DNA of 20,000 nucleotides, from IMG/VR virus record IMGVR_UViG_3300029705_006997; one strand, given 5' to 3'. A model generated the notes under the pieces. That model was given only the letters and a program-made list of their open reading frames with translations. It had not been told where the DNA came from and searched no databases. The DNA comes from an uncultured virus (IMG/VR IMGVR_UViG_3300029705_006997) (taxonomy: Duplodnaviria; Heunggongvirae; Uroviricota; Caudoviricetes). Of the stretch, positions 2,815 to 19,363 are shown one piece after another. Position 1 is the stretch's first letter. Every line of letters starts with the position of its first letter. The position numbers and the translations under genes are program-made.

Positions 2815-3984
2815 TTAATTCGCTTTGAAGTTGTATATAGGAATGATACGTTCAAGGATTTCCACAGTAGGCTCTATACACTCCATGATTTCAGTGTAGT
2901 TTTTGTAAGCAAACGGTGCTTCATCAAGAGTGCTTTCATTTACGCAGGTAGTGTAAATACCTGCTGTTTTCATTGTATCAGCATATTCTTCAACAGAGAA
3001 GATTTCCTTAGCTTTTGAGCGTGAGTATAATCTTCCTGCACCGTGAGGGGCTGAATAGTTCCATTCAGGATTGCCTTTGCCTTTGCATACAAGCATACCA
3101 TCACGCATATTAAGAGGAATGACCAATATTTCATCTCTTTTCGCAGAGATGGCGCCCTTGCGGAGAATCATGCTTTCTATATCAATATAGTTGTGAATGG
3201 AATTGATATGAGAAACAATTTTGCCGGACATCCGAGTCACAATAGCGTTGAGCATCGTGAAGCGATTCTGGTCAGCAAATTTCTGCATGATAGCTATATC
3301 GTGGAGATAGTCCTGCATATCTTGTCCTGTAAGATAGCACAGGTCACGAGATATATTTATCTTATTTTCCTGCAGCCAAAGTTCACGCTTGACAGGCGGG
3401 ATAGTCTGCAATAATTCTGTCAGTGTTTTGTGATTGTGTTCTTTTGTACGCTGTTCAGCAAGGTTCTGATAATACTTTGCCACAGCAAGACCTATATTAC
3501 GGCTGCCGCTGTGTACAGCGATATAGCCATTTTTGTAAGCCTCAAGAAAATGATTGCCGCCGCCAAGGGTGCCCATGGCACGCTTTGCTCTGTCTTGAAC
3601 TTCTTTGGTGAGTTTGTCCCAACAAAGGAGTTTGGTAAAGTCAAAATAGACCTCATTCTCGTGTACTGCCATACCATGAGGTATGTTCTTTCGAATAACC
3701 TCGTCGAGTTCAGGAAGACGATTTTCAAAGTCAATGTCGGTATGGACAAGGTCGACTCCACATCCAATGTCTACACCCACGAGATTAGGGCAAATTTTAT
3801 CGGTAATTGTCATCGTTGTTCCGATAACACAGCCTGCGCCTGCGTGAGCATCAGGCATGATTCGGATATTGGCGTTTTCTCCGATAGGGGAATTGGCCAT
3901 TTCGCTGATTTGTGAAATAGCTTCCTGTTCGATGGTCTTGGCATAGACAATGACATCACCGTGTTTTGAAGTTAAGGTAAACAT
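2815..3984 (-). CDS. rtcB: RtcB family RNA ligase (3'-phosphate/2',3'-cyclic phosphate to 5'-OH)
   Basis: 389 aa with the RtcB motifs MPDAHAG, GVDIGCG, GTLGGGNHF, HSGSR, HNY, RKGA, SAPHGAGR (guanylylated His) and DEAPFAYK. Confidence 0.97.
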   Translation of the reverse strand: MFTLTSKHGDVIVYAKTIEQEAISQISEMANSPIGENANIRIMPDAHAGAGCVIGTTMTITDKICPNLVGVDIGCGVDLVHTDIDFENRLPELDEVIRKNIPHGMAVHENEVYFDFTKLLCWDKLTKEVQDRAKRAMGTLGGGNHFLEAYKNGYIAVHSGSRNIGLAVAKYYQNLAEQRTKEHNHKTLTELLQTIPPVKRELWLQENKINISRDLCYLTGQDMQDYLHDIAIMQKFADQNRFTMLNAIVTRMSGKIVSHINSIHNYIDIESMILRKGAISAKRDEILVIPLNMRDGMLVCKGKGNPEWNYSAPHGAGRLYSRSKAKEIFSVEEYADTMKTAGIYTTCVNESTLDEAPFAYKNYTEIMECIEPTVEILERIIPIYNFKAN

Positions 3985-4745: not shown

Positions 4746-4761
4746 ATTTTTAAATCCTTTC

Positions 4762-5130
4762 TTAGTATATTTTATTGATTTCTCGTTTGTTGATTTCACC
4801 TGTGACATTGTTTTTCCAAGTATAAAGCTCAGCGGTTACGATATCACCCTTTTCATAGCTATAGCAATCATCAAGAATGCTTATATTTTCAAAAATATAG
4901 CTATCTGATAAATCATATTCTTCGCTGTAAACAGAAATCTTGACAGAGCGGCGAATAGCGGGTGCTGCCCCATATACTTGATGTTCAACATCAGTAATAA
5001 CGACTTCGATATCCTTCCAATACAAATGATTGGTATCAGGTGGGGGAGCGTAATCATATTCGCGATTGCTATCACAACCGCAAAACAGCAATAAAGCTGT
5101 TAATAACGTAATGATTATATTTTTCCGCAT
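4762..5130 (-). CDS. Putative lipoprotein, possibly OB-fold-like
   Basis: Signal peptide MRKNIIITLLTALLLFCGC ending in a lipobox-like Cys; beta-rich mature part. Confidence 0.75.
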   Translation of the reverse strand: MRKNIIITLLTALLLFCGCDSNREYDYAPPPDTNHLYWKDIEVVITDVEHQVYGAAPAIRRSVKISVYSEEYDLSDSYIFENISILDDCYSYEKGDIVTAELYTWKNNVTGEINKREINKIY

Positions 5131-5281
5131 AAACGCCCTCTTTTCAAAATATTCTTTATGATTGATTTTCTTATGAATTAATGTTTTATGAGTATAGTGT
5201 TTTTCAGATTATTCTATTTGTCTGTTTTCAAATCCTTTCTTGATATATTTTGTCCTTATACGTTGTCGATTTTGTGTAAAG

Positions 5282-6604
5282 TTAATTTGCGAGCTGAAGC
5301 ACATTGCTTGAATTCATTTTGATTCTTATTTTCTGTATGTGATTGTTATAGAAGCACATTTTTTCTTCATTTGTAGCTGTGATTCGTGTCATTGAGTACA
5401 ATCGGTGCATCAAATCCATACCATTCACTTCTGTGAATATATTTTCAGTTGCGTATCTATTGAATACATTCAGCAATACGATTTCTTTCAATGTATTTGC
5501 TTCGGTTGCGTTGAAGTCATCCAATGTACAGTGAGCTATTCCATTTGCATCCAGCAAATCACTCATTGTTTTGCTGAACTTTTCGTCTTCGGTAACACAA
5601 TAGAATTTTGCACCGGGTAATGATGACATTACACCCCAAAAGTCAGAATCGCTTGATACCAATACAAATGACGTTATGCCCTGTTGATAATATTCTTGGC
5701 CAATTCCCATTGCCATTCGAATATCAACCAACGATTTTTCTGCCATTACGCGCTTAACGACTATGTGTTCGATGATATTGACATCTATGTAATTTTTCAG
5801 GAAGTCCCATCCCATAGTAGTATGTTCATCATCAAACAGAATGATTTTGTGTATCTTTTTTATAGTTTTCTGGTCCAATGACATCAGCATAGCATATAAT
5901 TTATATACATCTGAGTTTTCACAGTCAACTACCAAATCAACAGTGTTTCTTGCAGTTATGAAATCCGTCAATGACATTTTGCCATTTGCATTGTTGCAAT
6001 AATTATTCATTGTGAAATGGCGACCATGCATTCCATACACTATTTTCAAAAATCTTGTATCACTTGCCAACAAATCGCCTACATCATGTGGTTTCCAGTG
6101 TATATACATTTTGTTTGGATATTCATCCCTATGTGTCTGATAAGCTTTGATTTGTTTCTTTTGCTCATTGGGTTTATTACAGTTTGGACACACAAACAAA
6201 TCTTTCATATAATCCCATTCTATCCAATCAGGATAAAATTCAGCACAAGCATTTATGTTTTCAGAAATGAGTTTATTTATGAAGACCAAGTAATCTGTAT
6301 TCTTACCGTTGGGTATATGAATTTCAATACCCATATTCTTCAAATATGCTATGGCGTTTGCATCAAACCAATCCATTTGTTCAAAACGTTTGAAATCATA
6401 TTTCAATGCAGTGTCGGTTTTTTCAAAATTCATAAGCAGATTTGTTCTTAAAATACACAGTGAACGTATTTTTGTCGCAGCTTCAGATTTCATCATTGCT
6501 ATGATGATGTCAGAACAAGTGGGGTATTTTTCAAGCAGAGTGGTATCAGCTATACCAATCAAATAGGCTGTTTTACTTACAATATCGTTTGTTACTTCAC
6601 CCAT
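5282..6604 (-). CDS. NYN (LabA/DUF88, PIN-like) domain protein, putative ribonuclease, with ~215 aa N-terminal extension
   Basis: VVDCENS, KSLVDIRM and FVLVSSDSDF are the acidic catalytic motifs of NYN domains; RBS AGGAGG. Confidence 0.85.
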   Translation of the reverse strand: MGEVTNDIVSKTAYLIGIADTTLLEKYPTCSDIIIAMMKSEAATKIRSLCILRTNLLMNFEKTDTALKYDFKRFEQMDWFDANAIAYLKNMGIEIHIPNGKNTDYLVFINKLISENINACAEFYPDWIEWDYMKDLFVCPNCNKPNEQKKQIKAYQTHRDEYPNKMYIHWKPHDVGDLLASDTRFLKIVYGMHGRHFTMNNYCNNANGKMSLTDFITARNTVDLVVDCENSDVYKLYAMLMSLDQKTIKKIHKIILFDDEHTTMGWDFLKNYIDVNIIEHIVVKRVMAEKSLVDIRMAMGIGQEYYQQGITSFVLVSSDSDFWGVMSSLPGAKFYCVTEDEKFSKTMSDLLDANGIAHCTLDDFNATEANTLKEIVLLNVFNRYATENIFTEVNGMDLMHRLYSMTRITATNEEKMCFYNNHIQKIRIKMNSSNVLQLAN

Positions 6605-6764: not shown

Positions 6765-6802
6765 TTTATAGACAACCCCGTTTGTCTGTAAAGACAAAAA
6801 AA
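6765..6802. repeat. 38-bp dispersed intergenic repeat, copy 1 (contains 7-bp hairpin with GTAA loop)
   Basis: tttatagacaaccccgtttgtctgtaaagacaaaaaaa; 33/38 identical to 11779..11816. Confidence 0.85.
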
Positions 6803-7541: not shown

Positions 7542-8291
7542 TTACTTATTATACGAATCAGCGATATCAGGTGATGAAATGTCAGGTGACTTTGGGGCAA
7601 AGTTATCTGAAACAGCTGTATCATAGCGTGATAATTTTATAGCTTTTGCTTCAGCTGTTTTAGTTTTTTCTGTCATTTCACATTGTCTGGCACCACGTTC
7701 CATGCTGTCTTTGAATATTTTTGTTAAATGTTCAGTTTCAGAATATTGTCCGATAGATGACATCACCAAAGCTGTTCTCGTATAGCCTGAATGAGAGGCA
7801 AATAATTGTCTGTCCATAGGGAATCCGTGTGCGTCGGCAAATTGACAAGCGAACGTCATGGTTGTTCGGGTGTTGCCTTCTCTGAATGGATGAGCTTGCC
7901 ATAATTCAGCAATATTTTTTGCATATTTTTCAGCTCGTTCATCAGGGGACAGACTGTTCCAATCAGTGTCATGAAGTTTTTTGATAGCTTTCTTGGCATT
8001 TTTCTCGATTTCATTTGGATAAGCATATTGAACTGACATGCCACCCAATGCCTTTTCGCTTTTGCTGATAGGTATTTCTCGTTCTTCGCCGGCCCAATCA
8101 TAAATGTCTCCGAAAATATGCTTATGGAGTTTTTTGTAGTGGGCATAATCAAAATCACCTTTGATTTCATCAACTGTCATCATTTTTGTGGATGTTATGT
8201 CTGCTTCTGCGTCACTTAAAGCAGTCCTATCTTTGATGCCGAGTTTATTTTTCAGCACATCTGAATTTTCATACAAATATGGGTCAACCAT
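7542..8291 (-). CDS. fic: Fic domain protein (FicT-like toxin) with C-terminal extension
   Basis: DPYLY...VLKNKLGI, LHKHIFGDIYDWAG, Fic motif HPFREGNTRT; start re-assigned to MVDPY, overlapping the antitoxin stop. Confidence 0.93.
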   Translation of the reverse strand: MVDPYLYENSDVLKNKLGIKDRTALSDAEADITSTKMMTVDEIKGDFDYAHYKKLHKHIFGDIYDWAGEEREIPISKSEKALGGMSVQYAYPNEIEKNAKKAIKKLHDTDWNSLSPDERAEKYAKNIAELWQAHPFREGNTRTTMTFACQFADAHGFPMDRQLFASHSGYTRTALVMSSIGQYSETEHLTKIFKDSMERGARQCEMTEKTKTAEAKAIKLSRYDTAVSDNFAPKSPDISSPDIADSYNK

Positions 8292-8481
8292 TGTTTTGTG
8301 AATATGAAGCAATGATAGAAGTTTCTACTTCTTTCAGCTCCATTTCTCCGTTGATATATTTACCGAAAAGAGCCATAGCTTTTTCAGTAGGGGGCTTTGA
8401 GTCCAGTGACGCTAAAGCAAGACCGTTTTTGATGATTTCTTTTCGCTCTTCGCGAGTGGTGTCTTTAATTAAAACACTCAT
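8284..8481 (-). CDS. VbhA/FicA-like antitoxin
   Basis: 65 aa directly upstream of and overlapping fic; ...PTEKAMALFGKYINGEMELKE matches the VbhA-like Y(I/V)xGE(I/M) pattern. Confidence 0.8.
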   Translation of the reverse strand: MSVLIKDTTREERKEIIKNGLALASLDSKPPTEKAMALFGKYINGEMELKEVETSIIASYSQNNG

Positions 8482-8516
8482 AAATCTGTTCCTTTCATAT
8501 AGATTTTACTGATATT

Positions 8517-8545
8517 ATTATAGCATAATTGCTGTGAAAAAGCAA
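8517..8545 (-). promoter_or_regulatory. Sigma-A promoter of the antitoxin-fic operon with overlapping inverted repeat
   Basis: Minus strand TTGCTT-17 nt-TATAAT with extended -10 TG; inverted repeat ATTGCT-7 nt-AGCAAT at 8528..8546. Confidence 0.75.
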
Positions 8546-8554
8546 TATTTTGAA

Positions 8555-8773
8555 TTAAAACGGATAGTCTTTTGCTCGCAATGTTTTTAAAAATTCAACA
8601 GTAAAGCGATGCTTGGTATAGAAGATAATCCGGTTAATATCTTTCTTGCGGAATTTCTGGATAGTAAAGCCGCAATCGGGGTCGGTAGGATGAAAACCAT
8701 ATTTGTCAGTATAACCCTCAATTACTGTATTATCATCAAGAAGATATGCTTTACGTTTGTATAAATTCTTCAT
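8555..8773 (-). CDS. Small hypothetical protein
   Basis: Start re-assigned to MKNLY (RBS AAGGAG). Confidence 0.75.
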   Translation of the reverse strand: MKNLYKRKAYLLDDNTVIEGYTDKYGFHPTDPDCGFTIQKFRKKDINRIIFYTKHRFTVEFLKTLRAKDYPF

Positions 8774-8792
8774 AGTTTTACTCCTTATTGTT

Positions 8793-9317
8793 TTATTCAA
8801 TACATACGTTTGTAATTATACCGCTTGCATAGTCAGCTAAAAGCAAGGCTCTCAGTTCTTGCAAATTGCAGCAAGATAAGCCATATGAGACATTGTCTTC
8901 ATTGACAACAGCCATGTCCCAGCTTTCATCCGTATCGCAGTATGCTGTATATGTTTTTGTTTCACCGTGTACGGTCATTGTCACGAGTATATCTTTATTG
9001 ATGCTCAAGATTGTATTTTCAATAGCATCAAACACATATGGCTGCGGCTTTTCTGAAGTAAGCTTTTGTTCCATTCGTTTCATAATTTCGGCTTTGTATT
9101 TTTCAGCCTGTTTTTTGGAACTTATAGATAAGCCATAAGTATATGATGTGCCTGCATATGCACACTGGTTTGCATCAGCCATGAATTTTGTATATAAAAT
9201 ATACAAATATTCAGTTGAAATAGTTTTAACATCATCGTTTTTCTGTGACATAGCCTGTTTGAAATCAGCCAAATCACAGTTTTTATAATCCTTATATGTA
9301 ATGTTGGATTCAAACAT
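8793..9317 (-). CDS. Hypothetical protein; N-terminal domain paralogous to 6806..7444
   Basis: 174 aa; CDLADFKQAMSQKNDDVKTISTEYLYILYTKF; RBS AAGGAG. Confidence 0.85.
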   Translation of the reverse strand: MFESNITYKDYKNCDLADFKQAMSQKNDDVKTISTEYLYILYTKFMADANQCAYAGTSYTYGLSISSKKQAEKYKAEIMKRMEQKLTSEKPQPYVFDAIENTILSINKDILVTMTVHGETKTYTAYCDTDESWDMAVVNEDNVSYGLSCCNLQELRALLLADYASGIITNVCIE

Positions 9318-9324
9318 GTATCAA

Positions 9325-9786
9325 TTACTCCTTATCTGAATTTTTACGTTTTATGACTTTTGCTATCAACGAGCCGGTAAGTCCGATGATACTGATTATC
9401 AGGAATAGCCAGCTGACCATAATATTGCAGGCAATATGATGCGGATTGCTTTCAGAATATAAAATCTGTACATTACCGCCTTTTTTCATTGTAAAATCGT
9501 AAGTATTCAGTTCAGCTGAATATCCGATTTCATGACCTGCATTGTCACATACAAAATATGTCACATAAACATCATAATCAGTATGTGTTTTGCCATTGCG
9601 ACGATATGATGACTTATCAATATCGGTGATAACGGCTGATGTTTCAACGCCGTCTGTAAACTTAAGCATCAGAAAATCCATATTTATCAAAAGAGAGATA
9701 ATCAGGAACATAATAAAGAAGCCTGTTGAAACGTCGCTGAGACCATGCGGCTTGCCGAATAGGATTATACCACCTTTTTCATTCAT
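9325..9786 (-). CDS. DUF3592-like membrane protein
   Basis: TM helix - TSAVITDI...YDVYVTY...GGNVQILYSESNP - TM helix architecture; start MNEKGG with RBS GAGGTG. Confidence 0.75.
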   Translation of the reverse strand: MNEKGGIILFGKPHGLSDVSTGFFIMFLIISLLINMDFLMLKFTDGVETSAVITDIDKSSYRRNGKTHTDYDVYVTYFVCDNAGHEIGYSAELNTYDFTMKKGGNVQILYSESNPHHIACNIMVSWLFLIISIIGLTGSLIAKVIKRKNSDKE

Positions 9787-9797
9787 GTTAAGACACC

Positions 9798-10244
9798 TCA
9801 ATTCAAAGTCTGTTTGGAATAATAGCTTTTTATTGTCGGAATATTGATAATTGGCATTTCGGGTAAAAATGCATGCAAATTATCTCTTGCTTCAATGTAA
9901 GGCATTTCTGATTTTATGAGCTGTTCGAGTTCATTGTCACTGAACTTACCGTAATTATTCCAGATGCGTTCAAGAAAAGTCTGTGTTTCATCATCAATGG
10001 GCTTTGCATTCATGATAGTGTGTTTATTGAGAGTATTTCTGCCGAAAAACTCAAGAGGGGAATATAAGCTCATAGCGATAGGACCGCTATACCAAGCTCT
10101 GAATTCACCGTTGAATAATGCTGCATCATACAAAGTATGATGCCAAGCCTGTGTATAATAACAAAGCTTCTGCAGTTTACTGTGGGTCATTGGTGCTTTA
10201 CATAAGAACCAATAAGCGATATCGAGAATCATATATTTTTTCAT
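9798..10244 (-). CDS. Panacea domain (SocA-like/DUF4065/GepA) antitoxin-family protein
   Basis: IAYWFL, KLQKLCYY, LF..EFRAWYSGPI, YGKFS...L; start MKKY with RBS GAAAGGA. Confidence 0.88.
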   Translation of the reverse strand: MKKYMILDIAYWFLCKAPMTHSKLQKLCYYTQAWHHTLYDAALFNGEFRAWYSGPIAMSLYSPLEFFGRNTLNKHTIMNAKPIDDETQTFLERIWNNYGKFSDNELEQLIKSEMPYIEARDNLHAFLPEMPIINIPTIKSYYSKQTLN

Positions 10245-10266
10245 AAAATATTGTCCTTTCATGACG

Positions 10267-10485
10267 TTACCATTTGTTTTCTTCAATCAATTCGTTTTTG
10301 ATTTGATTGAAAAGCATTATACGGCGATTTTGTTCTTTCAGAAATACCACTCTCTCTATGGGAGAGAGAATGGATTCTGATTTAGCAATAGCGTAGGTCG
10401 AGCGTTTGTCGTGATGTTTTTTAATATACGTAAGCAGTTTGTTTTCTGCTCGTTTGTATATTTTTTGATGTATTCGTTTGTTCAT
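10267..10485 (-). CDS. Small basic hypothetical protein
   Basis: 72 aa ORF abutting the stop of the upstream gene. Confidence 0.7.
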   Translation of the reverse strand: MNKRIHQKIYKRAENKLLTYIKKHHDKRSTYAIAKSESILSPIERVVFLKEQNRRIMLFNQIKNELIEENKW

Positions 10486-10486
10486 A

Positions 10487-10876
10487 TTATAATTTTACAA
10501 GAGGTCGAGGAAAACGCTGCATTTCAGCGTGCAGCCAATCCAGTGCGTCAGGCTTGAATATATGTTCAGCAAAAGCTTCCACAAAACCTGTTGCTGTATA
10601 AGTCACCATTCTGTTGATGATATAACACTGTTCATCGACAGTTAAAGCTGATAAATTGATGAGCTGTACTTTTGTGCTGTCATCTTCACCTACAGCTGCA
10701 TAAGACCGAACATAACGGTCAAAATGAGGCTGAAGCTTATCATAATCGCCCCATTTCATTATCATATCATCAGGTCCGTAGATTAAGATGCTTGGATTTT
10801 CTATACCGTTATTAGAATGAGCACTACACAAAGTGCCGTTCTGAACATAGCAAACGTAAGGTTTTGTATTTGACAT
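10487..10876 (-). CDS. Hypothetical protein
   Basis: Start re-assigned to MSNTKPY (RBS GAAAGGAG). Confidence 0.8.
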   Translation of the reverse strand: MSNTKPYVCYVQNGTLCSAHSNNGIENPSILIYGPDDMIMKWGDYDKLQPHFDRYVRSYAAVGEDDSTKVQLINLSALTVDEQCYIINRMVTYTATGFVEAFAEHIFKPDALDWLHAEMQRFPRPLVKL

Positions 10877-10889
10877 AATGATACTCCTT

Positions 10890-11327
10890 TCAGTATATAC
10901 GGTCTTCTTCTCTGAGAATACCGAGGTTTTCAAGTGTTAAAATCTGAGCATTTGTGAGATTGTTTTCATAGTAATATTCAATTTGGCGATTGTAATTGCG
11001 ATAGATTTTGACCCAACCCTGCATTTCAAGACATCTTTCATTTGACTTGAGATAAAGCTGAGCAAATAATCTATGTTCACCGTAATCACAACCATAATGC
11101 TTACCATTGCGGTCAATAAAACCGAAAATGCTGTCGGGTTTCAAAAGACAGCTCCAATCGAGATTTGTGATATCATCAGCTTCTACGATTATGTCATCAT
11201 CTGATGGCTCATAAGCCTGACGGCCGCCATATAGGTTTGTTATATAGCAGCCGTCAATTTTCCACCAACCATTATCAACGATGGAACCATCGTTGTATTC
11301 TGAAAAATTGTGTAAAAATTTTGGCAT
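10890..11327 (-). CDS. Hypothetical phage-type protein
   Basis: 145 aa; GFIDRNGKHYGCDYGEH...GWVKI...LTNAQ pattern; RBS AGGAG. Confidence 0.8.
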   Translation of the reverse strand: MPKFLHNFSEYNDGSIVDNGWWKIDGCYITNLYGGRQAYEPSDDDIIVEADDITNLDWSCLLKPDSIFGFIDRNGKHYGCDYGEHRLFAQLYLKSNERCLEMQGWVKIYRNYNRQIEYYYENNLTNAQILTLENLGILREEDRIY

Positions 11328-11342
11328 TGTTATCTCCTGTAT

Positions 11343-11726
11343 TTACGCATAGAGAGCCGTAAACCATCTGTTCCATTCAGCGTCTCGGTCTTCAAGAGAA
11401 GCATTCCATGTAAGCTTGCCGTTTTCAATAATACGACAGAAATTAAATACTTCCTGTTCTATGATTTCATCAGTGATTTCATAGCAGGTATCCATTGAGC
11501 CTATACAAACGGCGTCATTTACACTTTTGGCATTAGTCAATTTATCATAAGCCGTGATGTAAATAGCGGGAATATTGTTGTTAATGGATGTGACTTCAGC
11601 CATGATTATGATATTATTATCATAATCAATAGATGTCACAGCTTTGTTGTTTTTGCAAAAAATACTGCGTTTTGTAGTTCTGTCGCGAAGATTTTTAATA
11701 GCTATGACGATAGCGTTTGGGTTCAT
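11343..11726 (-). CDS. Hypothetical protein
   Basis: 127 aa ORF; RBS AAAGGAG. Confidence 0.8.
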   Translation of the reverse strand: MNPNAIVIAIKNLRDRTTKRSIFCKNNKAVTSIDYDNNIIIMAEVTSINNNIPAIYITAYDKLTNAKSVNDAVCIGSMDTCYEITDEIIEQEVFNFCRIIENGKLTWNASLEDRDAEWNRWFTALYA

Positions 11727-11778
11727 AATAGCATCTCCTTTTTTATCAGTGTCATAATAATTATTTTCTTATAAATCG

Positions 11779-11816
11779 TTTATGAACAACCCCGTCTGTC
11801 TGCAAAGACAGAAAAA
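11779..11816. repeat. 38-bp dispersed intergenic repeat, copy 2 (contains 7-bp hairpin with GCAA loop)
   Basis: tttatgaacaaccccgtctgtctgcaaagacagaaaaa; 33/38 identical to 6765..6802. Confidence 0.85.
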
Positions 11817-11841
11817 GCCCCAATGTACAGAGCATCAGGGC
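11812..11841 (-). terminator. Intrinsic terminator downstream of 11908..12702
   Basis: Minus strand GCCCTGATG-CTCTGTA-CATTGGGGC-TTTTT (two G-U pairs). Confidence 0.7.
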
Positions 11842-11907
11842 ATTAATTTAAGAAATATATTATAGATATCAGAGTTTAACGGAAATAGTGAATCGTAATT
11901 TGGTAAA

Positions 11908-12702
11908 TTATGATTTGGTAAATTGCTGAGATGTAGATTTTGAATGTGTTTTAATTGTTTTGTATATAGCTATTGTTACAAATATGCTTCCGATTATTGC
12001 AATTCCAATGATGGTGAAGATGACGCTGTTCATATCAGTTCTTTCATAAATAGGTTCTGTGTTTTGATAAGGAACGGCTGAAGTATTTGTTTCAAAGCCT
12101 GTAATATTGGCTGTGGGGTCAGATATGTATATCCAGCCCCGATTATTCCAGATATAACCTATATAGCCCCATTTTTGATTGTTTTCATCAGTATATATCT
12201 TGCTTATATAAGTTGTCCACTCAGGCGGATACTGTTTCATAATGCGTGCATTTTCACTATGAGGATAAGACCATAGATAGATAGGCTTATCAGTGGTGTA
12301 ATCAACAAGCTCATTGTTGGCGTCGACAATATCAGCTTTGTGTTCTTCCATAAAGCTTGTATTGTCATAAATTACGTCACAATCAGTCATTTTTATCCAA
12401 AGCTGTTCATATTCATCATTGGTAACTGAGAAACAGCCCCATTGGATATCATTCTTGTCAGTATGTTCTCCTATAATGGTTATTGTACTGTTAATTTCGA
12501 ATTTACCTATGCGTTTTCCATTAGGATTGTCATAAACAGGGCATTCGTTTATGATTTTATATTGTCTGGTCACACCGCCGACAAGCGGTTCAAACATCAT
12601 TTTACTGCTCAATGCATCCTGTGGTTTGAAAACAAAATAATTAATCAGTATTGCGATTATAATCAACAAAGAGGTCAGGAGTATTGTTTTGAATGTTTTC
12701 AT
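11908..12702 (-). CDS. Membrane-anchored protein with two SH3b-like repeats
   Basis: N-terminal signal/TM and C-terminal TM; two repeats (VYDNP...HTDKNDIQWGCF...WI and LWSYP...YTDENNQKWGYI...GWI). Confidence 0.75.
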   Translation of the reverse strand: MKTFKTILLTSLLIIIAILINYFVFKPQDALSSKMMFEPLVGGVTRQYKIINECPVYDNPNGKRIGKFEINSTITIIGEHTDKNDIQWGCFSVTNDEYEQLWIKMTDCDVIYDNTSFMEEHKADIVDANNELVDYTTDKPIYLWSYPHSENARIMKQYPPEWTTYISKIYTDENNQKWGYIGYIWNNRGWIYISDPTANITGFETNTSAVPYQNTEPIYERTDMNSVIFTIIGIAIIGSIFVTIAIYKTIKTHSKSTSQQFTKS

Positions 12703-12737
12703 ATTATGTCACATACTTTCTTTATCAGATTATTTAT

Positions 12738-12766
12738 ATTATATCACGTTTATGCAAAAATATCAA
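12738..12766 (-). promoter_or_regulatory. Sigma-A promoter, leftward
   Basis: Minus strand TTGATA-17 nt-TATAAT with extended -10 TG. Confidence 0.8.
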
Positions 12767-12892
12767 GTATATGAGGTATTTTGCAATACAGGGATTGATA
12801 CGGATATGACAAACAAATGATACAAAGGCTTTTTATTCTCAAAAATGAGAGGATTTTGCAACAAATTTTGTTCAATAAATGCGTTCACAATA

Positions 12893-12921
12893 TTGACATT
12901 TTTGAAGATATATGGTATAAT
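12893..12921 (+). promoter_or_regulatory. Consensus sigma-A promoter, rightward
   Basis: TTGACA (12893-12898)-17 nt-TATAAT (12916-12921) with extended -10 TG. Confidence 0.9.
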
Positions 12922-12969
12922 AATATCAGGACATTAGGTCAAACAATTATTGCGACTATCAGATACGAC

Positions 12970-13040
12970 ATGCGGATAAAATTGATATTGAGATTATCGG
13001 CATAGATGTTTTGAAAGAAGCAGCTGTGTCGATTTTTTAT
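12970..13040 (+). promoter_or_regulatory. Putative transcription attenuator (overlapping antiterminator and terminator) in the 5' leader
   Basis: Terminator ATCGGCATAG (12996-13005)/CTGTGTCGAT (13024-13033) followed by a T-tract; competing stem ATGCGGATAA (12970-12979)/TTATCGGCAT (12994-13003). Confidence 0.6.
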
Positions 13041-13063
13041 TATATCTGAAAGGACTTGAGGCT

Positions 13064-13396
13064 ATGCAGCTGTTGCATATACCCGATAAAGAAACCAAAG
13101 AATTTGCATATTATATCGGTTTTTTCGATAAAAACGATGTGAATGATTTTCTTGTAACCTGTAGAAAAATAGATACTTTGCTTGAGTCAGCAAGAGGGGA
13201 CAGCGATGCTTGTCGTTATGGCAATTTAGCTGACAAAATCATAAGTAGATGTGATGGCGGTCTTACGGGTCCCAATGGTGAGTTGATAATTAAGCTCGAA
13301 TCACAGGAATTGTGTTCGTTGTTTTCTATTTTTTCTACATTTACAAAAGCGGATATGATTTTGTATGAGTCGTTATATGGTTTGATTGACATATGA
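13064..13396 (+). CDS. Hypothetical protein (paralog family C)
   Basis: 110 aa; RBS GAAAGGA/GAGG; similar to 13418..13786. Confidence 0.8.
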   Translation: MQLLHIPDKETKEFAYYIGFFDKNDVNDFLVTCRKIDTLLESARGDSDACRYGNLADKIISRCDGGLTGPNGELIIKLESQELCSLFSIFSTFTKADMILYESLYGLIDI

Positions 13397-13417
13397 AACA
13401 AGAAAGGGGCAGACGTT

Positions 13418-13786
13418 ATGTTTCTGTCACGAAAAATCGACAATGAGACAAATATCGTTATTGATTATCTGAGTTTCACAGATAATAATGATTTAAACTG
13501 GTTTTTTAATCATCTCAGAGCTATCTGCGAAAGATATGACAGGCTTCGTGGTCAAATACTCGTTGATAATCCGAGCAAAGAAGCAGAAATGAAATATATG
13601 GACATTGTCAATATATTGAATGCCAAGATAAATTGCGATTTCGATAAGCCCGATACGGACTTTACTGTAGAAATAACATTTGAAGAGCTGCAGTATTTGC
13701 TTTATATCTATATGCTGTTTGCAGAATCGGAACAGGATATATTCGAAATCAGTCAGAAAATAAACATTTGTCAGGAAAAGGAGTAA
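13418..13786 (+). CDS. Hypothetical protein (paralog family C)
   Basis: 122 aa; RBS AGAAAGGGG; DNETN...YLSFTDNNDLNWF vs DKETK...YIGFFDKNDVNDF. Confidence 0.8.
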   Translation: MFLSRKIDNETNIVIDYLSFTDNNDLNWFFNHLRAICERYDRLRGQILVDNPSKEAEMKYMDIVNILNAKINCDFDKPDTDFTVEITFEELQYLLYIYMLFAESEQDIFEISQKINICQEKE

Positions 13787-13791
13787 TCAAT

Positions 13792-14172
13792 ATGACAGTT
13801 GAAAGAGGGCAGCTTGTGAGAGTCAAGGCTATTGACGGAAATACTTACACAGGAACGATTTATCAAATCGTTATCGAGCAATGTGAGGATGATGACAATA
13901 AGCCTCATGCAATGATACATATCTCGCAGGATAGGCGATTTATCAACTCAGAGGGTGAGTTTGGTCATGTTTCACTCTGGCTTGAAGCTATTGAGAGCAT
14001 CAGAAAGCTTGAGGGAACAGGCTGTAATAACATAACGACTTCACTCAGAGTTATCCATGATGAAGCTGAGAGATTGCTCAAGAGTGTTGAGTTAAATAAG
14101 CTTTCAGAAGATAAAAATACTTTAAGACCTATGTGTCTGAAATGCGGCAAGACAGTTATGGTTGATTTTTAA
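13792..14172 (+). CDS. Hypothetical protein, N-terminal Sm/SH3-like barrel, single C-terminal CxxC
   Basis: Start re-assigned to MTVERGQLVRV (RBS AAAGGAG); DGNTYTGTI; CLKCG near the C-terminus. Confidence 0.75.
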   Translation: MTVERGQLVRVKAIDGNTYTGTIYQIVIEQCEDDDNKPHAMIHISQDRRFINSEGEFGHVSLWLEAIESIRKLEGTGCNNITTSLRVIHDEAERLLKSVELNKLSEDKNTLRPMCLKCGKTVMVDF

Positions 14173-14210
14173 TCGAAGTATTTTAGTGTAAAACAAAGAG
14201 GTTATTTATT

Positions 14211-14534
14211 ATGGTTGTAAAGTATTCCAGTAATGGCGTGACCGGTGTGATTGTTGTAGAACATGCAATTCGCAAGCCTTGTAAGGGCGGTAATCTGTTA
14301 CGCTTTTATCCACTGTGCAAAAAGGATTTTACGAGTTTCAGCATATTTGAAGACGGAGATATTGTTGCAGGTGCGCTTCTTAATATGTTATATAAAGGCG
14401 AGCTGGATATTACAAATTATGAAGTTGTATTTGAGAAGAAAAAGCGAGGTAAACGTGTGAGTAAAAGGAGCGTGATTTATCATGAAAGTCAAAAGCAGAG
14501 AGGATTTGAAAGACAGGGAGCTTCTTGTGATTAA
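14211..14534 (+). CDS. Hypothetical protein (paralog family B, 'MVVKY')
   Basis: 107 aa; RBS AGAGG; similar to 16979..17350; its 3' end overlaps the next gene by 53 nt. Confidence 0.75.
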   Translation: MVVKYSSNGVTGVIVVEHAIRKPCKGGNLLRFYPLCKKDFTSFSIFEDGDIVAGALLNMLYKGELDITNYEVVFEKKKRGKRVSKRSVIYHESQKQRGFERQGASCD

Positions 14535-16863
14535 AACAGCCGAGGGCTGTGGTGAGAATAAAGACAAATACGCATGTATAATACAGCTGCGTCAGGATGG
14601 CGAGCTTGGTAAGAAGGACCCGCAGAAAAATCCTAATTTGTATACCAAGAGTTATACAGACAAAAGCGGCAATAAGCAATATACAAATACAGTATATTTG
14701 TCCGAAGCTGAGTATAAAGCTATCGAAAAGGCTTCAGAGGGCAATGGTTATAAGACGCAAAAATCAGCTTGCTTTGCTGTAAAATGCGATTTGAAAATCG
14801 AGGAAGCTGCTATGAAAAACGCGTCGGGACAGCCCATATTGAATGATGACGGCAAACCTGTGACGAAAAAGAAGTTAGCCCTTGATTTTGATACGGTCAG
14901 ACCGTCTGATTATGTGTTTGATACGAAGTCCAAAACAGTTCATGATATCAATTGGAAGACAGCAGCTAAGCCTGAAAATATTGCGATGTATGACCATTTG
15001 AAATCTATGTTGGCTTCTTATGAACTGACTCCTAATCCATATGCCGAAAAGCAAAGCGAAGCTGTTAGCGAGAAGGAAACTGTTGAAACTGAAAAGAAAC
15101 AACCGCTTCAGAGCAAACGTGAAATGACTTTTGAGGAATACAAGGCTCTTAATTTATTCAATAAAGGAACATTATTGGGTAAATATTATTATGAGCATGA
15201 TGACGGCGACCAGTGTTGGTCTAATTCATCACATCTTTACCAGCTTGGAGACCGTTATTTCTATGAAGGCTCTGAGGGATATTATTGCGAGGATAGTTAC
15301 TATGAGTATACACAGGATGAAGCTGTGGAGAAATTGAAGGAATATGAGGAAGAATCAAAGCGTTGGGATAGTCATACTGTCACCGAAGCAGGACGTCAGA
15401 TTCTCGACGGTAAGAATGCTCAGGCTGAAAAACAGAGTGATACAGTAACTGCTGAAAAATCAAAAGAAACAGCAAGTGTTGTTATTGAAGATGCTCAGTT
15501 TGAACGGCTAAAGCAGGAAGTTAATGATGGTAAGCGTATGAATTTTGTAGGAACAGCAGTATGTATTCCTTCATTTACGATAGCAGGACAAACGTATGCA
15601 AAACCCGGTGCAAAAGTAATGCCGCTGCCTGAATTATATATAAAGTCATCAGAAATGTCAGAGCATATGGTGTACGCAGTTGATGCCACGAATTTATCAT
15701 TTGATGATATACGCAAAGACTGTAAAGAATTCAGGGAAGACCTGAGTATTCCGCAGACATTGGCGGCTAATGTAAAAGCCGGCAAAGCTCCTCGATTTGA
15801 TGATAATCGCGACATTGAGGTTCTGAGAACTCGCTTGGAATCGTGTGCTCATACTAATCCTGAAGAATATTCAGCTTTTGATGATAAAATTACAGAAGGT
15901 GATGCTAAGGATTACAGTGTGATGCACGGTAAATTCACAATGTATGCATTTAGTGCAGAGGTTGACGAACATGGCAGGATATATGTAGATACTATTGAAA
16001 AGTCAACATTGCATCCCGATGAATTATCAAAAGATGTATGCAAAAAATCATTTGCATACAGAGATTCAGAGATGTTCTTAGCAAATGACGCTAATTTTGA
16101 AACAAAAATTGAGAAAATGTTGTCTAAGTACGATGCACCTGAAGAAAAATCTGTTGAAGTCAAGGAAGCTGATAAGACAGCTGATAAATCCACAAAGACA
16201 GAGTTTGGTGTGTCTGACTGTTGGGATGAGCCGACTCCAACAGAAGCAAGAGAGGCTAAGCGTCAGGCAAATCTTGAAGAAAAGGTAAAGAGTGACGATG
16301 GATTTGACGTCAAAGACCTGAAAGGCAGAGATGTTATCATTATCAAAGCTGCCGAAGGCTGCGGTAAGGACAAAGACGGTTATCTCGTAAGCGTAACGCT
16401 CAGACAAGACGGCGAGTTTGGCGCAAATGACCCACATATGTATCCTTGTGTGAGTATGCATGATTACAATGGTCGAAGAGGTAATACCGTTTACCTGACT
16501 AAATCACAGTATGAAGCTGTTGAAAATGCGGCAGGGGATAATGCATTTCAGCCTAAAGGTAATCGCGCGATGCATATGGCTGTCAAATGCGATTTGAAAG
16601 AGCGCACCGATGAGACAGGTTATAAGTATTTGACGCTTGATACCAAGACCGTTCAGCCGCCGAGTGTGGAATTCAATGAAAAGACACTGACAGACCATCG
16701 TGATACTATTTCACGTAATCGAAAAGACGTTGAAAAGATACAGAGTCTTACGAAAGACGCTGATAAGATAAAAAGCACTCTGAATGCAAGATTTGCGTCA
16801 GCTGCTCAGGTGGGTAGTGAAGTTTCACAGCCCGAAAGCTCAACGCCTGATTATCCGTTTTAA
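14482..16863 (+). CDS. Large multidomain protein with two copies of the 'LRQDG' domain (family A)
   Basis: 793 aa; RBS AAAGGAG; internal repeat AEGCG...LRQDGE.G..DP...NTVYL...AVKCDLK near both ends. Confidence 0.9.
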   Translation: MKVKSREDLKDRELLVIKTAEGCGENKDKYACIIQLRQDGELGKKDPQKNPNLYTKSYTDKSGNKQYTNTVYLSEAEYKAIEKASEGNGYKTQKSACFAVKCDLKIEEAAMKNASGQPILNDDGKPVTKKKLALDFDTVRPSDYVFDTKSKTVHDINWKTAAKPENIAMYDHLKSMLASYELTPNPYAEKQSEAVSEKETVETEKKQPLQSKREMTFEEYKALNLFNKGTLLGKYYYEHDDGDQCWSNSSHLYQLGDRYFYEGSEGYYCEDSYYEYTQDEAVEKLKEYEEESKRWDSHTVTEAGRQILDGKNAQAEKQSDTVTAEKSKETASVVIEDAQFERLKQEVNDGKRMNFVGTAVCIPSFTIAGQTYAKPGAKVMPLPELYIKSSEMSEHMVYAVDATNLSFDDIRKDCKEFREDLSIPQTLAANVKAGKAPRFDDNRDIEVLRTRLESCAHTNPEEYSAFDDKITEGDAKDYSVMHGKFTMYAFSAEVDEHGRIYVDTIEKSTLHPDELSKDVCKKSFAYRDSEMFLANDANFETKIEKMLSKYDAPEEKSVEVKEADKTADKSTKTEFGVSDCWDEPTPTEAREAKRQANLEEKVKSDDGFDVKDLKGRDVIIIKAAEGCGKDKDGYLVSVTLRQDGEFGANDPHMYPCVSMHDYNGRRGNTVYLTKSQYEAVENAAGDNAFQPKGNRAMHMAVKCDLKERTDETGYKYLTLDTKTVQPPSVEFNEKTLTDHRDTISRNRKDVEKIQSLTKDADKIKSTLNARFASAAQVGSEVSQPESSTPDYPF

Positions 16864-16939
16864 TAATTAACAGCCTGTAAGGGTTGATAATTAAGATATT
16901 CAGATATTCAATGCGTAGTAACGCTGAAGAATATCTTGA
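16864..16939 (+). other. Structured intergenic region with two adjacent hairpins
   Basis: TAATTAaCAGCCT-GTAA-GGGTTGaTAATTA, then AAGATATTC (16893-16901)/GAATATCTT (16929-16937) enclosing TTCA/TGAA and GCGT-AGTA-ACGC. Confidence 0.55.
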
Positions 16940-16978
16940 TATATACAAAATATTTTTTAACAAAAAGGAGTTTTTATT

Positions 16979-17350
16979 ATGGTAGTAAAGTACGGTATCC
17001 CCGGCAGTTATTCAAAATGGGCTGTGACAGAAATCATCAATGTGCGTCAATGGAATTGCGGCAATGGTGATTCTCTGGTGTTTTTCACACCTGCTTGTGA
17101 CAAGATGAGTCACATTGCAATACGCACAAGTCATGATGATGCCAAGGCTATTATCGATAAGCTGTATGACAGCGGCAGAATTGATGTATCGGAATACTAT
17201 ACTGTATTTGTCGGTACCGATATGCTTTTTGATGATGTTGCGAAGTCGGAAGACAAATACGGCGCCATGTTCAAGCGTGAACTCATTGCTGATATTGCCA
17301 AACAGCTGTCTGATGATGACGAGTTTGATGATGAGGACGACGCTGAGTAA
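16979..17350 (+). CDS. Hypothetical protein (paralog family B, 'MVVKY') with acidic tail
   Basis: 123 aa; RBS AAAGGAG; LYDSGRIDVSEYYTVF vs LYKGELDITNYEVVF. Confidence 0.85.
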   Translation: MVVKYGIPGSYSKWAVTEIINVRQWNCGNGDSLVFFTPACDKMSHIAIRTSHDDAKAIIDKLYDSGRIDVSEYYTVFVGTDMLFDDVAKSEDKYGAMFKRELIADIAKQLSDDDEFDDEDDAE

Positions 17351-17370
17351 TCAGGTTACAAAAAAAAATA

Positions 17371-17405
17371 CTATCCATACAGCCCGTAAGGGCTGCTATG
17401 GGTGG
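17371..17405 (+). other. Intergenic hairpin with GTAA loop, related to the 16870 hairpin
   Basis: CTATCCATA-CAGCCC-GTAA-GGGCTG-c-TATGGGTGG; no U-tract after it on the + strand. Confidence 0.65.
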
Positions 17406-17437
17406 CAATCAAACTATAAAAAGGAGTGTTTTTTACT

Positions 17438-18265
17438 ATGTCAACCAATAATTCAGGAGTATCAGCAGATACAATGATTGAAAAAATTAACGCATTTAAT
17501 ACAGAGGTTGATGCGTTATATGCGGGAATTGATACGAAGGACAAAAAGACTGTTGATATTCTCAATAAACACGGGTATACGCCTGAAAGTATGGATGAAT
17601 ATGATTTGACAGCTATTGATGCGCTCAATCAGATACATCGAAATAAAATAGAAGACAAAATAATAAAACCCAATGATTTTTCAATCAAACAGACGAGCGA
17701 CCGAGATGTTATTGTAAGCAAAATTGCTGAAAATGTCGGTAAGGATAAAAAAGGTTATGAGGTAACGATGGAGCTCAGACAGGATGGCATATTTGGCATT
17801 GATGACCCGCATATTGACCCAAATTTAATCAATTATGAGAGCAAAGACAAAACACGCAACAGCATTATTATATCAAAATCCCAGTATGATGCTATTGCCA
17901 AAGCCGCAGGTGATAATGTCGTTCAGGACGGCAAGACAACACATATGGCTGTTTCGGGTGATTTGGTAAAACCTAAATGTTCTGATGAAAGGGATATTGG
18001 TTTAATGGTTGACCCGAAAACAGTTAAATCGGCAACAATGCCTTTCAATGAGGCTTCGCTGAAGAATCATCGGGAAATGGGAACATTTAATCAAAAATGG
18101 ACAAATGAGATTCAAATTGAACTGCAAGAATATTTCGATGAAGCAAACGCTTATAAACGTGCTGTGGCGGCGTCAACAAAGAGTAATCTGAATGCACGAT
18201 TTGCAGGAAGTGCTCAGACTGTTGATACTCCGGAGACAAAAACAGATGAATTGTATCATTTTTGA
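17438..18265 (+). CDS. Single 'LRQDG' domain protein (family A)
   Basis: Start MSTNN (RBS AAAGGAG); RDVIV...AENVGKDK.GY...LRQDG.FG..DPH...KSQY.A...AAGDN...HMAV. Confidence 0.9.
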   Translation: MSTNNSGVSADTMIEKINAFNTEVDALYAGIDTKDKKTVDILNKHGYTPESMDEYDLTAIDALNQIHRNKIEDKIIKPNDFSIKQTSDRDVIVSKIAENVGKDKKGYEVTMELRQDGIFGIDDPHIDPNLINYESKDKTRNSIIISKSQYDAIAKAAGDNVVQDGKTTHMAVSGDLVKPKCSDERDIGLMVDPKTVKSATMPFNEASLKNHREMGTFNQKWTNEIQIELQEYFDEANAYKRAVAASTKSNLNARFAGSAQTVDTPETKTDELYHF

Positions 18266-18274
18266 GGAGATATT

Positions 18275-18487
18275 ATGAAACCTAAAACAAAAAGTCAGCT
18301 CGAAGAGAGCTACAATCACATCAAGAATTATCTTGATAATGAGGATTCCACTAAGGAATTAAGGGAAATGTGCAATATTTGTGAATGTTATTACGGTAAG
18401 GACCATAATTACGATGATTGTAAAGACAAACCTTGCTTCAAATTCTGGCTTGCTTATGAGTATCTGGAGTGGGATAACGCTTGGTAA
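18275..18487 (+). CDS. Small Cys-rich, putative metal-binding protein
   Basis: 70 aa; CNICEC...H...C....CF; RBS GAGGAG. Confidence 0.8.
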   Translation: MKPKTKSQLEESYNHIKNYLDNEDSTKELREMCNICECYYGKDHNYDDCKDKPCFKFWLAYEYLEWDNAW

Positions 18488-18523
18488 AAAGATGGTATAA
18501 ATATGGAAGGAGATGTGTGGATT

Positions 18524-19363
18524 ATGTTTCAAACCAAAGCAAAAGAGGATGAAGGAATCGACGTAATTGTTCATGAGGTCAATTTTGTGAAGCTTTCTCC
18601 TGATAATCCTGATGAGGATATTATTTATTCAGCTTATTTTTTAGCCCCTGATACAGTGGATAAATCAGAAAAGCAAACGGCAAGGGACGCTGAAGAAATC
18701 AATAATGTGAAATTAAAAAACGGTTCACATAATGAGGTAAAATATTACGAAGATGGCACTCATTACAGCGGACACTATATGTATTGTGACCCCGACCCCG
18801 AAGGTGCATATAATCATAACGTCAAGGAAAAGCTTGACGCACCGAATATGCCTTTGACGAATGGTCAGTTTTGCAATATCGTATCTATGCCAAGAAAATA
18901 TTGGCGTGACAGTGAGATTTCAGCAAAGGCTGAAGGCTCAATGTTCAGTTCCCTATGTGGCAAACAGGACGGTATGTGCAATGTTGATGATTCATTTCCC
19001 GAACTGAAGCAATCTGCTGAAAATTTTGTTAAAACAAATGCGTCAGAAATGGTTGGTGAAGATGTAAAGTTTCTTGACAGTCGTGTTTGCACAGCCAGAG
19101 TTTACATCGACGATAGTCCTCATAGTTGGAATAAAGGCAGTGTTAAGCTGCATAGCGTATGTGAGTCACACACGCATCCTGAAGGAATCTCAACAGCTCA
19201 ACTCAAAGAGCATTGCGATAATATGACAAAAGTCAACGATATTATAAAAGAGAAACAGGATACTGCAAAACGTCAAAACGCAGGACGCAGATTTCTTAGT
19301 GCTGTCGGTATAGGCGGTGTAACAGCTGACGCTGAAAAGACTGATGATGTGCAATATAATTAA
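18524..19363 (+). CDS. Hypothetical protein, possible distant member of family A, with the shared C-terminal tail
   Basis: Start MFQTK (RBS GGAAGGAG; track start 18503 is an alternative); GSVKLHSVCESHTHPEGIS resembles GRIYVDTIEKSTLHPDELS of the 793 aa protein. Confidence 0.85.
   Translation: MFQTKAKEDEGIDVIVHEVNFVKLSPDNPDEDIIYSAYFLAPDTVDKSEKQTARDAEEINNVKLKNGSHNEVKYYEDGTHYSGHYMYCDPDPEGAYNHNVKEKLDAPNMPLTNGQFCNIVSMPRKYWRDSEISAKAEGSMFSSLCGKQDGMCNVDDSFPELKQSAENFVKTNASEMVGEDVKFLDSRVCTARVYIDDSPHSWNKGSVKLHSVCESHTHPEGISTAQLKEHCDNMTKVNDIIKEKQDTAKRQNAGRRFLSAVGIGGVTADAEKTDDVQYN

Follow-up and report, generated by a model that had tools for sequence, protein, structure and literature searches.

Tails of one form at the C-termini of the relaxase, RNA polymerase, Fic protein and other proteins of a conjugative-type element: a candidate signal for transfer

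Why should a Fic-domain protein and several proteins of other kinds, encoded on opposite strands of the same DNA, end in the same way? The question is raised by a stretch of 20,000 nucleotides (hereafter the window) that forms the final 20 kb of a 76-kb record classified as a virus in IMG/VR (IMGVR_UViG_3300029705_006997, here labelled G000; 54% complete). A preliminary description of the window had noted four such proteins and proposed that their common tail is an address tag, used either in conjugation or in the loading of a virion. Our analysis indicates that the tail is element-wide and occurs on the relaxase, the RNA polymerase, the Fic protein and many other soluble proteins. Despite its filing as a virus, the source contig is part of a conjugative-type element of ~190 kb, which is related to mobile elements of gut Clostridia. 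With a probability of roughly 0.55, the tail would be a C-terminal signal for the element's own conjugation machine, selecting proteins for delivery into the recipient.

Four tails in the window and others in the element

The tail is composed of a basic residue followed by F/Y, a polar spacer of ~20 residues and an acidic end, in which a hydrophobic or aromatic residue is usually present. All four tails described earlier are present with the lengths then given, i.e. 22, 20, 22 and 26 residues after R-[F/Y] in the proteins encoded at 14482, 17438, 18524 and in the Fic protein. The features concerned are listed here with their profile scores (in bits) and with the number of 500 residue shuffles that reach the same score.

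7542..8291, minus strand: Fic-domain protein of the FicT/VbhT-like subfamily, motif HPFREGNTRTTM, C-terminal extension of ~49 residues (Pfam Fic, E 4e-14)
7545..7628, minus strand: tail of the Fic protein, RY plus 26 residues, read from the sequence (score 7.3; host fraction at or above this score 0.004; shuffles 21/500)
8284..8481, minus strand: 65-residue gene overlapping the Fic start, without the tail (no Pfam or NCBIfam match; a 66% identical counterpart at the same position in locus L195)
14482..16863, plus strand: 793-residue tailed protein in which the family A domain is present twice (family A profile at residues 10-203, E 1e-11, and 627-784, E 6e-14)
16789..16860, plus strand: tail of the 793-residue protein, RF plus 22 residues, read from the sequence (score 10.4, the top score; shuffles 0/500)
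16979..17350, plus strand: 123-residue protein whose end is purely acidic (score 3.9, borderline against a threshold of 3.7)
17438..18265, plus strand: 275-residue family A paralogue with a tail (BLASTP to 14482, E 9e-37; family A profile, E 7e-19)
18197..18262, plus strand: tail of the 275-residue protein, RF plus 20 residues, read from the sequence (score 4.9; shuffles 39/500)
18524..19363, plus strand: 279-residue protein of no known family, with a tail (library searches are given below)
19289..19360, plus strand: tail of the 279-residue protein, RF plus 22 residues, read from the sequence (score 6.5; shuffles 5/500)

The three plus-strand proteins had been taken to be unrelated. This has to be amended, since those at 14482 and 17438 are paralogues (33% identity over 263 residues, BLASTP E 9e-37) whose tails match at the DNA level too (repeat D9), whereas the 18524 protein gave no match to either in sequence comparison. 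The window thus holds three independent tail-bearing families, not four. The 279-residue protein (18524) had no match in Pfam, NCBIfam, PHROG or PADLOC, and only its own cluster was found, unchanged, on 15 contigs, the longest of 188,868 bp. The 123-residue protein probably owes its score to composition alone and is not counted as a tail carrier. As for the Fic protein (249 residues, minus strand, ATG at 8291, stop at 7542-7544), its tail does lie beyond the Fic fold: 107 residues follow the Fic motif, as compared with 58 in tailless homologues, and the extension of ~49 residues is situated past their stop. By profile score it is not the weakest of the four matches, as had been supposed, but the second best, and the closest relatives of the protein keep the tail.

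A hidden Markov model was trained on 24 plus-strand tails chosen by position only, from the RNA polymerase to the operon end, in the related element G002 (11 tails) and in contig L181 (13 tails). In the training alignment, F/Y stands at one anchor column in 21 of the 24 operon genes, as R-[FY] in 13 of those, and a polar spacer and an acidic end follow. The bodies of the 11 G002 operon proteins had no BLASTP match to one another and none to the window proteins, the latter check covering these 11 of the 24 training bodies. Ranked by this model, the top of the 82 open reading frames (ORFs) of the record consists, in order, of 14482, 52138, Fic, the polymerase, 18524, a 491-residue core protein, the relaxase and 17438. 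With the two orthologues of training rows removed, the window proteins rank 1, 2, 3 and 6 of 80, the relaxase also being in the top six; the chance that all four named ORFs fall within the top 6 of 80 is 1e-5. The 99th percentile of the host ORFs, a threshold defined by the host set itself, is passed by 7/80 ORFs of the record and by 5/466 host ORFs (p 5e-4), and within the window by 5 of 29 ORFs, the four tailed proteins being four of these. Further backgrounds gave 0/115 for low-GC host ORFs and 13/1003 for additional ORFs, and the threshold was passed by 1.9% of 1358 internal windows as against 9/82 C-termini. Like the signals of type IV secretion systems (T4SS), the tail lies beyond the folded domain, at the very end of the protein. 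Look-alikes picked by eye failed the profile (ToxN, 0.0 bits; the record's own HipA-like kinase, 1.4; C1:32807, -0.2).

A regular expression was written after inspection of G002 by eye and then fixed, contig L181 being unseen at that point. This strict rule demands R[FY] at a distance of 17-30 residues from the C-terminus, a polar fraction of at least 70% and two or more acidic residues among the last eight. It matches 4/82 ORFs of the record, 6/187 in G002, 0/15 in L004 and 6/15 in the previously unseen L181, at least three of the latter being orthologues of G002 proteins. The background was 0/466 for host ORFs (476 minus 10 dropped as element DNA) and 6/1003 in a second set. Just two close sister elements were found, and the blind test is accordingly small.

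The over-representation in element proteins, which the preliminary description had named as support for its idea, is thus observed, the relaxase included, and the tail is not confined to family A paralogues. In each of the two elements for which it was scored, the relaxase tail (5.5 and 5.1) lies above the 99th percentile of the host. Sharing of a tail by non-homologous proteins, among them the relaxase (in an atypical form), is likewise a property of T4SS signals. No hydrophobic segments were found in the eight top proteins of the record or in the 11 G002 operon proteins; the eight G002 transfer proteins that have such segments, together with the ClpB-like ATPase, obtained tail scores of -1.5 to 1.2 (the interrupted VirD4 is not among them). 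The replication genes of G002 (primase, UvrD helicase and topoisomerase) are below threshold. On the sister element that bears the Fic orthologue, a PBECR4 nuclease is tailed (8.5 bits). In more distant members, inspection by eye indicates that relaxase, polymerase and neighbouring genes have last words which resemble one another within a plasmid and are specific to it: the relaxase and polymerase of SAP020A end in DIELEL and GFELEM, and GPQLG- and GPELG-type ends are found on several unrelated genes of pGKT2. In G002, the adjacent unrelated genes L008:14913-15671 and 15711-16178, encoding a metallophosphoesterase and a Panacea antitoxin, both terminate in KTEVPF.

In 92 loci, family A is a core gene close downstream of the relaxase, and its C-terminus is almost always an acidic tail. 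Its structural model, a confident one (predicted local distance difference test, pLDDT, 83), is a barrel weakly resembling the oligonucleotide/oligosaccharide-binding (OB) fold, with a best Z of 3.2 and a Z of 3.0 for PrgE; the Foldseek matches are weak (best E 0.13 for PriB, 0.17 for SsbA). Family A proteins end in words like those of the single-stranded DNA (ssDNA)-binding protein SSB (PDYPF, AEFPI, DEPEF). For the 17438 protein itself, a single-sequence fold reached a pLDDT of 37, and Atlas searches returned no named family. In protein P0005 the family A tail recurs at an internal position, which suggests that such ends have been moved by recombination.

The element

The contig encodes, outside the window, a MobL relaxase (Pfam MobL, E 2e-50), pieces of VirD4 and a ClpB-like ATPase that contains an intein and homing-endonuclease (LAGLIDADG) domains. 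The region of the ClpB-like ATPase and VirD4 spans G000:C1:22800-26876 and 29356-42056; VirD4 is split by inserted DNA, which here measures ~8 kb and encodes an ABC transporter and a PcfJ-like protein, and the VirD4 gene is interrupted in close elements as well. Also outside the window, at G000:C1:45558-52082 (L003:8759-15283), lies the gene of a single-chain, two-barrel RNA polymerase of 2,174 residues with beta- and beta-prime-like motifs, whose DFDGD motif aligns to beta-prime (E 4e-6). Homologues of this polymerase, unannotated, are present in 13 PLSDB plasmids. A MobL relaxase, VirD4 and a fused two-barrel RNA polymerase are thus all found on one element, as expected of a conjugative MobL element with its own polymerase, and a check for hydrophobic segments indicates that membrane transfer genes are carried too.

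Relatives of the relaxase were found in 22 plasmids, 16 viral records and 80 genome loci, the latter mostly actinomycete. Relaxase and VirD4 form the core of the family, the ClpB-like ATPase is a core gene adjoining the relaxase, and the PLSDB members are plasmids. One member, pGKT2, is reported to transfer between actinomycetes (passage in PMC5640721). NCgl1702-like polymerases are treated in a passage of PMC7824862. The plasmid pWBG4 was considered as a known representative of the family and dropped: its paper reports a MobC relaxase and makes no mention of SAP020A.

The closest relatives of the element are G002 and contigs of an Oscillospiraceae metagenome-assembled genome, G001. G002 is a 198.5-kb, virus-classified element with 48-bp inverted ends, possibly linear. 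It has a conjugation region, and its genes (L008-L017) further include those of a D5-type primase, an actin-like partition protein and ATPases of the FtsH-like and Clp types. The region L013:5092-8051 (G002:105092-108051) holds a VirB4 match that covers the N-half only (E 2e-7), followed by a conserved gene of 672 residues, and the usual VirB4-type motor may be degenerate in this element.

What the tail may do

The combination to be explained is a positional motif on unrelated soluble proteins, relaxase included, of an element that bears both a relaxase and VirD4. The relaxase is the protein that must cross during conjugation, and relaxases are T4SS substrates. If the tail is a transfer signal, VirD4 would grip this unstructured segment and thread its bearer through the mating channel; the ClpB-like ATPase might assist by unfolding large cargo. 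The proteins delivered, comprising the relaxase, the polymerase and possibly an OB-fold ssDNA binder, would establish the incoming DNA. The 65-residue gene is, from its position and size, likely to be the antitoxin of Fic; Fic delivered without this tailless partner would render the recipient dependent on the element, in the manner of VbhT. Each ingredient has a precedent in passages of the literature: a short C-terminal signal is common among T4SS substrates (PMC10025392), proteins can accompany the DNA of conjugative elements into the recipient (PMC5512222) and VbhT crosses during mating (PMC5675462).

As a candidate signal, the tail resembles the T4SS C-terminal signals described in part of PMC10025392 (the Arg motif of Agrobacterium VirF and the hydrophobic type) in being short, unstructured, C-terminal, placed on unrelated folds, common to the relaxase and accompanied by a VirD4 gene nearby. 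It differs from them by its R-F/Y anchor ~20 residues from the end and by its divergent monoderm system, and ends acidic where VirF-type signals have a net positive charge at the very end. In charge it is closer to the Legionella E-block signal. Like VbhT of the Bartonella VbhT/VbhA pair, as presented in a portion of PMC5675462, the window Fic has a FicT-like domain extended at its C-terminus and is preceded by a small partner gene; in both cases the relaxase of the conjugative element shares the signal type. Unlike VbhT, the window Fic has no BID domain, its extension is ~49 residues long and its gene lies ~46 kb from the relaxase instead of adjoining it. Like the co-transferred proteins of conjugative elements and the polyvalent proteins treated in part of PMC5512222, the tailed proteins would be a protein cargo arriving with the DNA, and a PBECR-type nuclease is among those of the sister element; here, in contrast, many separate tagged proteins are grouped behind the element's RNA polymerase, and no common tail figures in that part of the account. 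The distant plasmid members share the relaxase, polymerase, ClpB-like ATPase and VirD4 homologues, and both their relaxase and their polymerase end in a polar or acidic tail (the relaxase end of pJM1A being less clear), whereas the R-F/Y-anchored form was seen only in the close clostridial clade.

C-terminal signals and the co-transfer of toxins are thus already known kinds. The acidic-ended R-F/Y form, its monoderm host family and a polymerase as one of its carriers were not found in the open literature, which leaves subscription journals and supplements outside (those of PMC5512222 could list these proteins), nor was a conjugative secretion signal for this element family found described there. 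Conjugative secretion signals are hard to predict; a tag readable from sequence would name the transferred proteins of an overlooked element family of Clostridia, actinomycetes and lactococci, and would render directly testable which proteins cross in Gram-positive mating. It predicts conjugative delivery of an RNA polymerase and recruitment of a Fic toxin to transfer without a BID domain. More tentatively, a widespread family of Gram-positive megaplasmids and integrative and conjugative elements might inject a whole tagged kit at mating (its own 2,000-residue RNA polymerase, a binder of ssDNA, some dozen proteins of unknown kind, and toxins to which the tag was added), with the ClpB-like unfoldase as feeding motor. 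This would be a conjugative counterpart of the phage virion RNA polymerase, and the tail a readable cargo list.

Several observations weigh against a transfer signal. Composition accounts for part of the tail score: out of 500 residue shuffles, 0, 5, 21 and 39 do as well as the real tail for 14482, 18524, Fic and 17438, respectively, and purely acidic host tails score as high as 7.8. Both polymerases in the training set are without a clear R-F anchor, the relaxase tail is atypical, with RF 29 residues from the end and a basic terminus, and the 14482 protein itself fails the strict rule. The other tails end acidic, whereas most known signals of this kind finish in basic residues. The strict rule matches only 1/134 and 1/85 ORFs in two more distant elements, and a Fic of an unrelated extended subfamily (L231) scores 9.2; the S-K-Y-D-T-I of that subfamily could be an independent source of the SRYDT of the window Fic. 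A complete VirB4 ATPase is not in evidence, the gene after the N-half (conserved, 672 residues) being without a canonical Walker A. Finally, a permutation test for element-specific last words in two unrelated core proteins gave p = 0.13 over 10 lineages, and the idea that these words co-vary is unsupported.

Among the alternatives, the one that best withstands the data is that of an intracellular docking or unfolding tag, read by the ClpB-like ATPase, by Clp/FtsH proteases or by a hub protein, which would govern turnover or assembly in the donor and not export. Tags of this sort are familiar: the ssrA tag is a protease tag, and the SSB tail, acidic and aromatic-ended, binds hub proteins. The ClpB-like core gene beside the relaxase, the FtsH-like and Clp-type ATPase genes of G002, and the weakly OB-like barrel of family A (pLDDT 83, best Z 3.2) with its SSB-like end words all fit such a role. 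Antitoxins, however, are the usual protease targets, yet here it is the relaxase and the toxins that are tailed and not the small partner gene of Fic; moreover, primase, UvrD helicase and topoisomerase of G002 score below threshold. We regard this alternative as doubtful, though it is not exclusive of export, which an unfoldase could serve.

It is less probable still that the tail is no signal at all, i.e. that low-complexity, acidic, disordered ends have been spread among element genes by 3'-end shuffling and score alike through composition. The shuffle counts of Fic and 17438 (21/500 and 39/500), the acidic host tails of up to 7.8 bits and the internal family A tail in P0005 speak for it. 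Against it, non-homologous proteins, and orthologues with diverged spacers, retain the anchor and its spacing to the C-terminus, and neither the low-GC host ORFs (0/115) nor the internal windows (1.9% of 1358, against 9/82 C-termini) pass at a comparable rate.

As regards the two destinations first proposed, conjugation is strengthened by the MobL relaxase and VirD4 on the contig, whereas a loading mark for a virion or capsid-like particle is very unlikely. Both records are classified as viruses in IMG/VR, G002 has 48-bp inverted ends and a true siphophage-type major capsid gene (L010:7910-8734; G002:47907-48734), a fragment of which is present in G001, and phage-injected RNA polymerases provide a precedent (reference titles in PMC5512222). 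Nevertheless, the three terminase and portal families searched (PF03237, PF04466 and PF05133) were unmatched in G002 and G000, a PHROGs scan of 78 of the 187 G002 proteins gave one head match and one secondary 'tail' match, no capsid gene was found in G000 (54% complete), G403 or G404, and the family has relaxase and VirD4 as its core and plasmids as its PLSDB members. Scarcely more credible is T4SS export to the donor envelope or the medium instead of the recipient: among the tailed operon proteins, a CW_7 cell-wall-binding repeat is present in one and a weak glycine zipper in a second, with no hydrophobic leader, whereas relaxase, polymerase and Fic act in the cytoplasm, so that their release into the medium would serve little purpose.

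The Fic protein, its relatives and other genes of the window

Compared with the canonical AMPylation motif, HxFx[D/E]GNGRxxR, the motif HPFREGNTRTTM is without the second Gly and the final Arg, a form typical of its subfamily. The NCBIfam VbhT model matches the window Fic with E 8e-30, below its cut-off, and only over model positions 4-193 of 419. The closest homologue, P0006 (64%), has the best tail score among 150. The best genome hit, the orthologue in L195, sits among seven homologues of element genes and retains both the partner gene and the tail; the spacer is changed, the score is 6.8 bits, and the strict rule is narrowly missed (15/22 polar). Tail types are mixed across a quick Fic tree, in which the window's group has a support of 91 (Shimodaira-Hasegawa-like approximate likelihood ratio test) and is unstarred.

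The same idea extended to other tailed Fic homologues (eight loci with -ER/-DR-type ends and one with a Lys-rich end) is unsupported. Like-ending neighbour ORFs numbered 0/140 at these nine loci as against 3/128 near tailless Fics, no relaxase or T4SS gene was found nearby at E <= 1e-12 (Pfam, 51 of 55 large neighbours), and mobile-element hints are present in only three of the nine. A separate Fic subfamily, among homologues L250-L273, has a conserved KYxxIGxY...PHEY extension. The window Fic (7545-8291) also matches the PADLOC candidate defence model PDC-S04 (E 2e-56). The HipA-like kinases at L195:10804-12387 (3.1, directly after Fic) and G000:C1:9443-10786 (1.4) have extensions that resemble the tail but do not reach the threshold.

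The minus strand of the window further encodes an RtcB RNA ligase (2815-3984), a weak NYN-domain protein (5282-6604) and a Panacea-domain antitoxin (9798-10286). Just upstream of several minus-strand genes lies a repeat of ~27-35 nt with the core AAATCCTTTCTTG (1753-1796, 2287-2330, 2794-2820, 4747-4773 and 5225-5251), in part a ribosome-binding site and possibly an element-specific regulatory box. A 38-nt intergenic sequence is present in two copies in the window (6765-6802 and 11779-11816) that are 87% identical.

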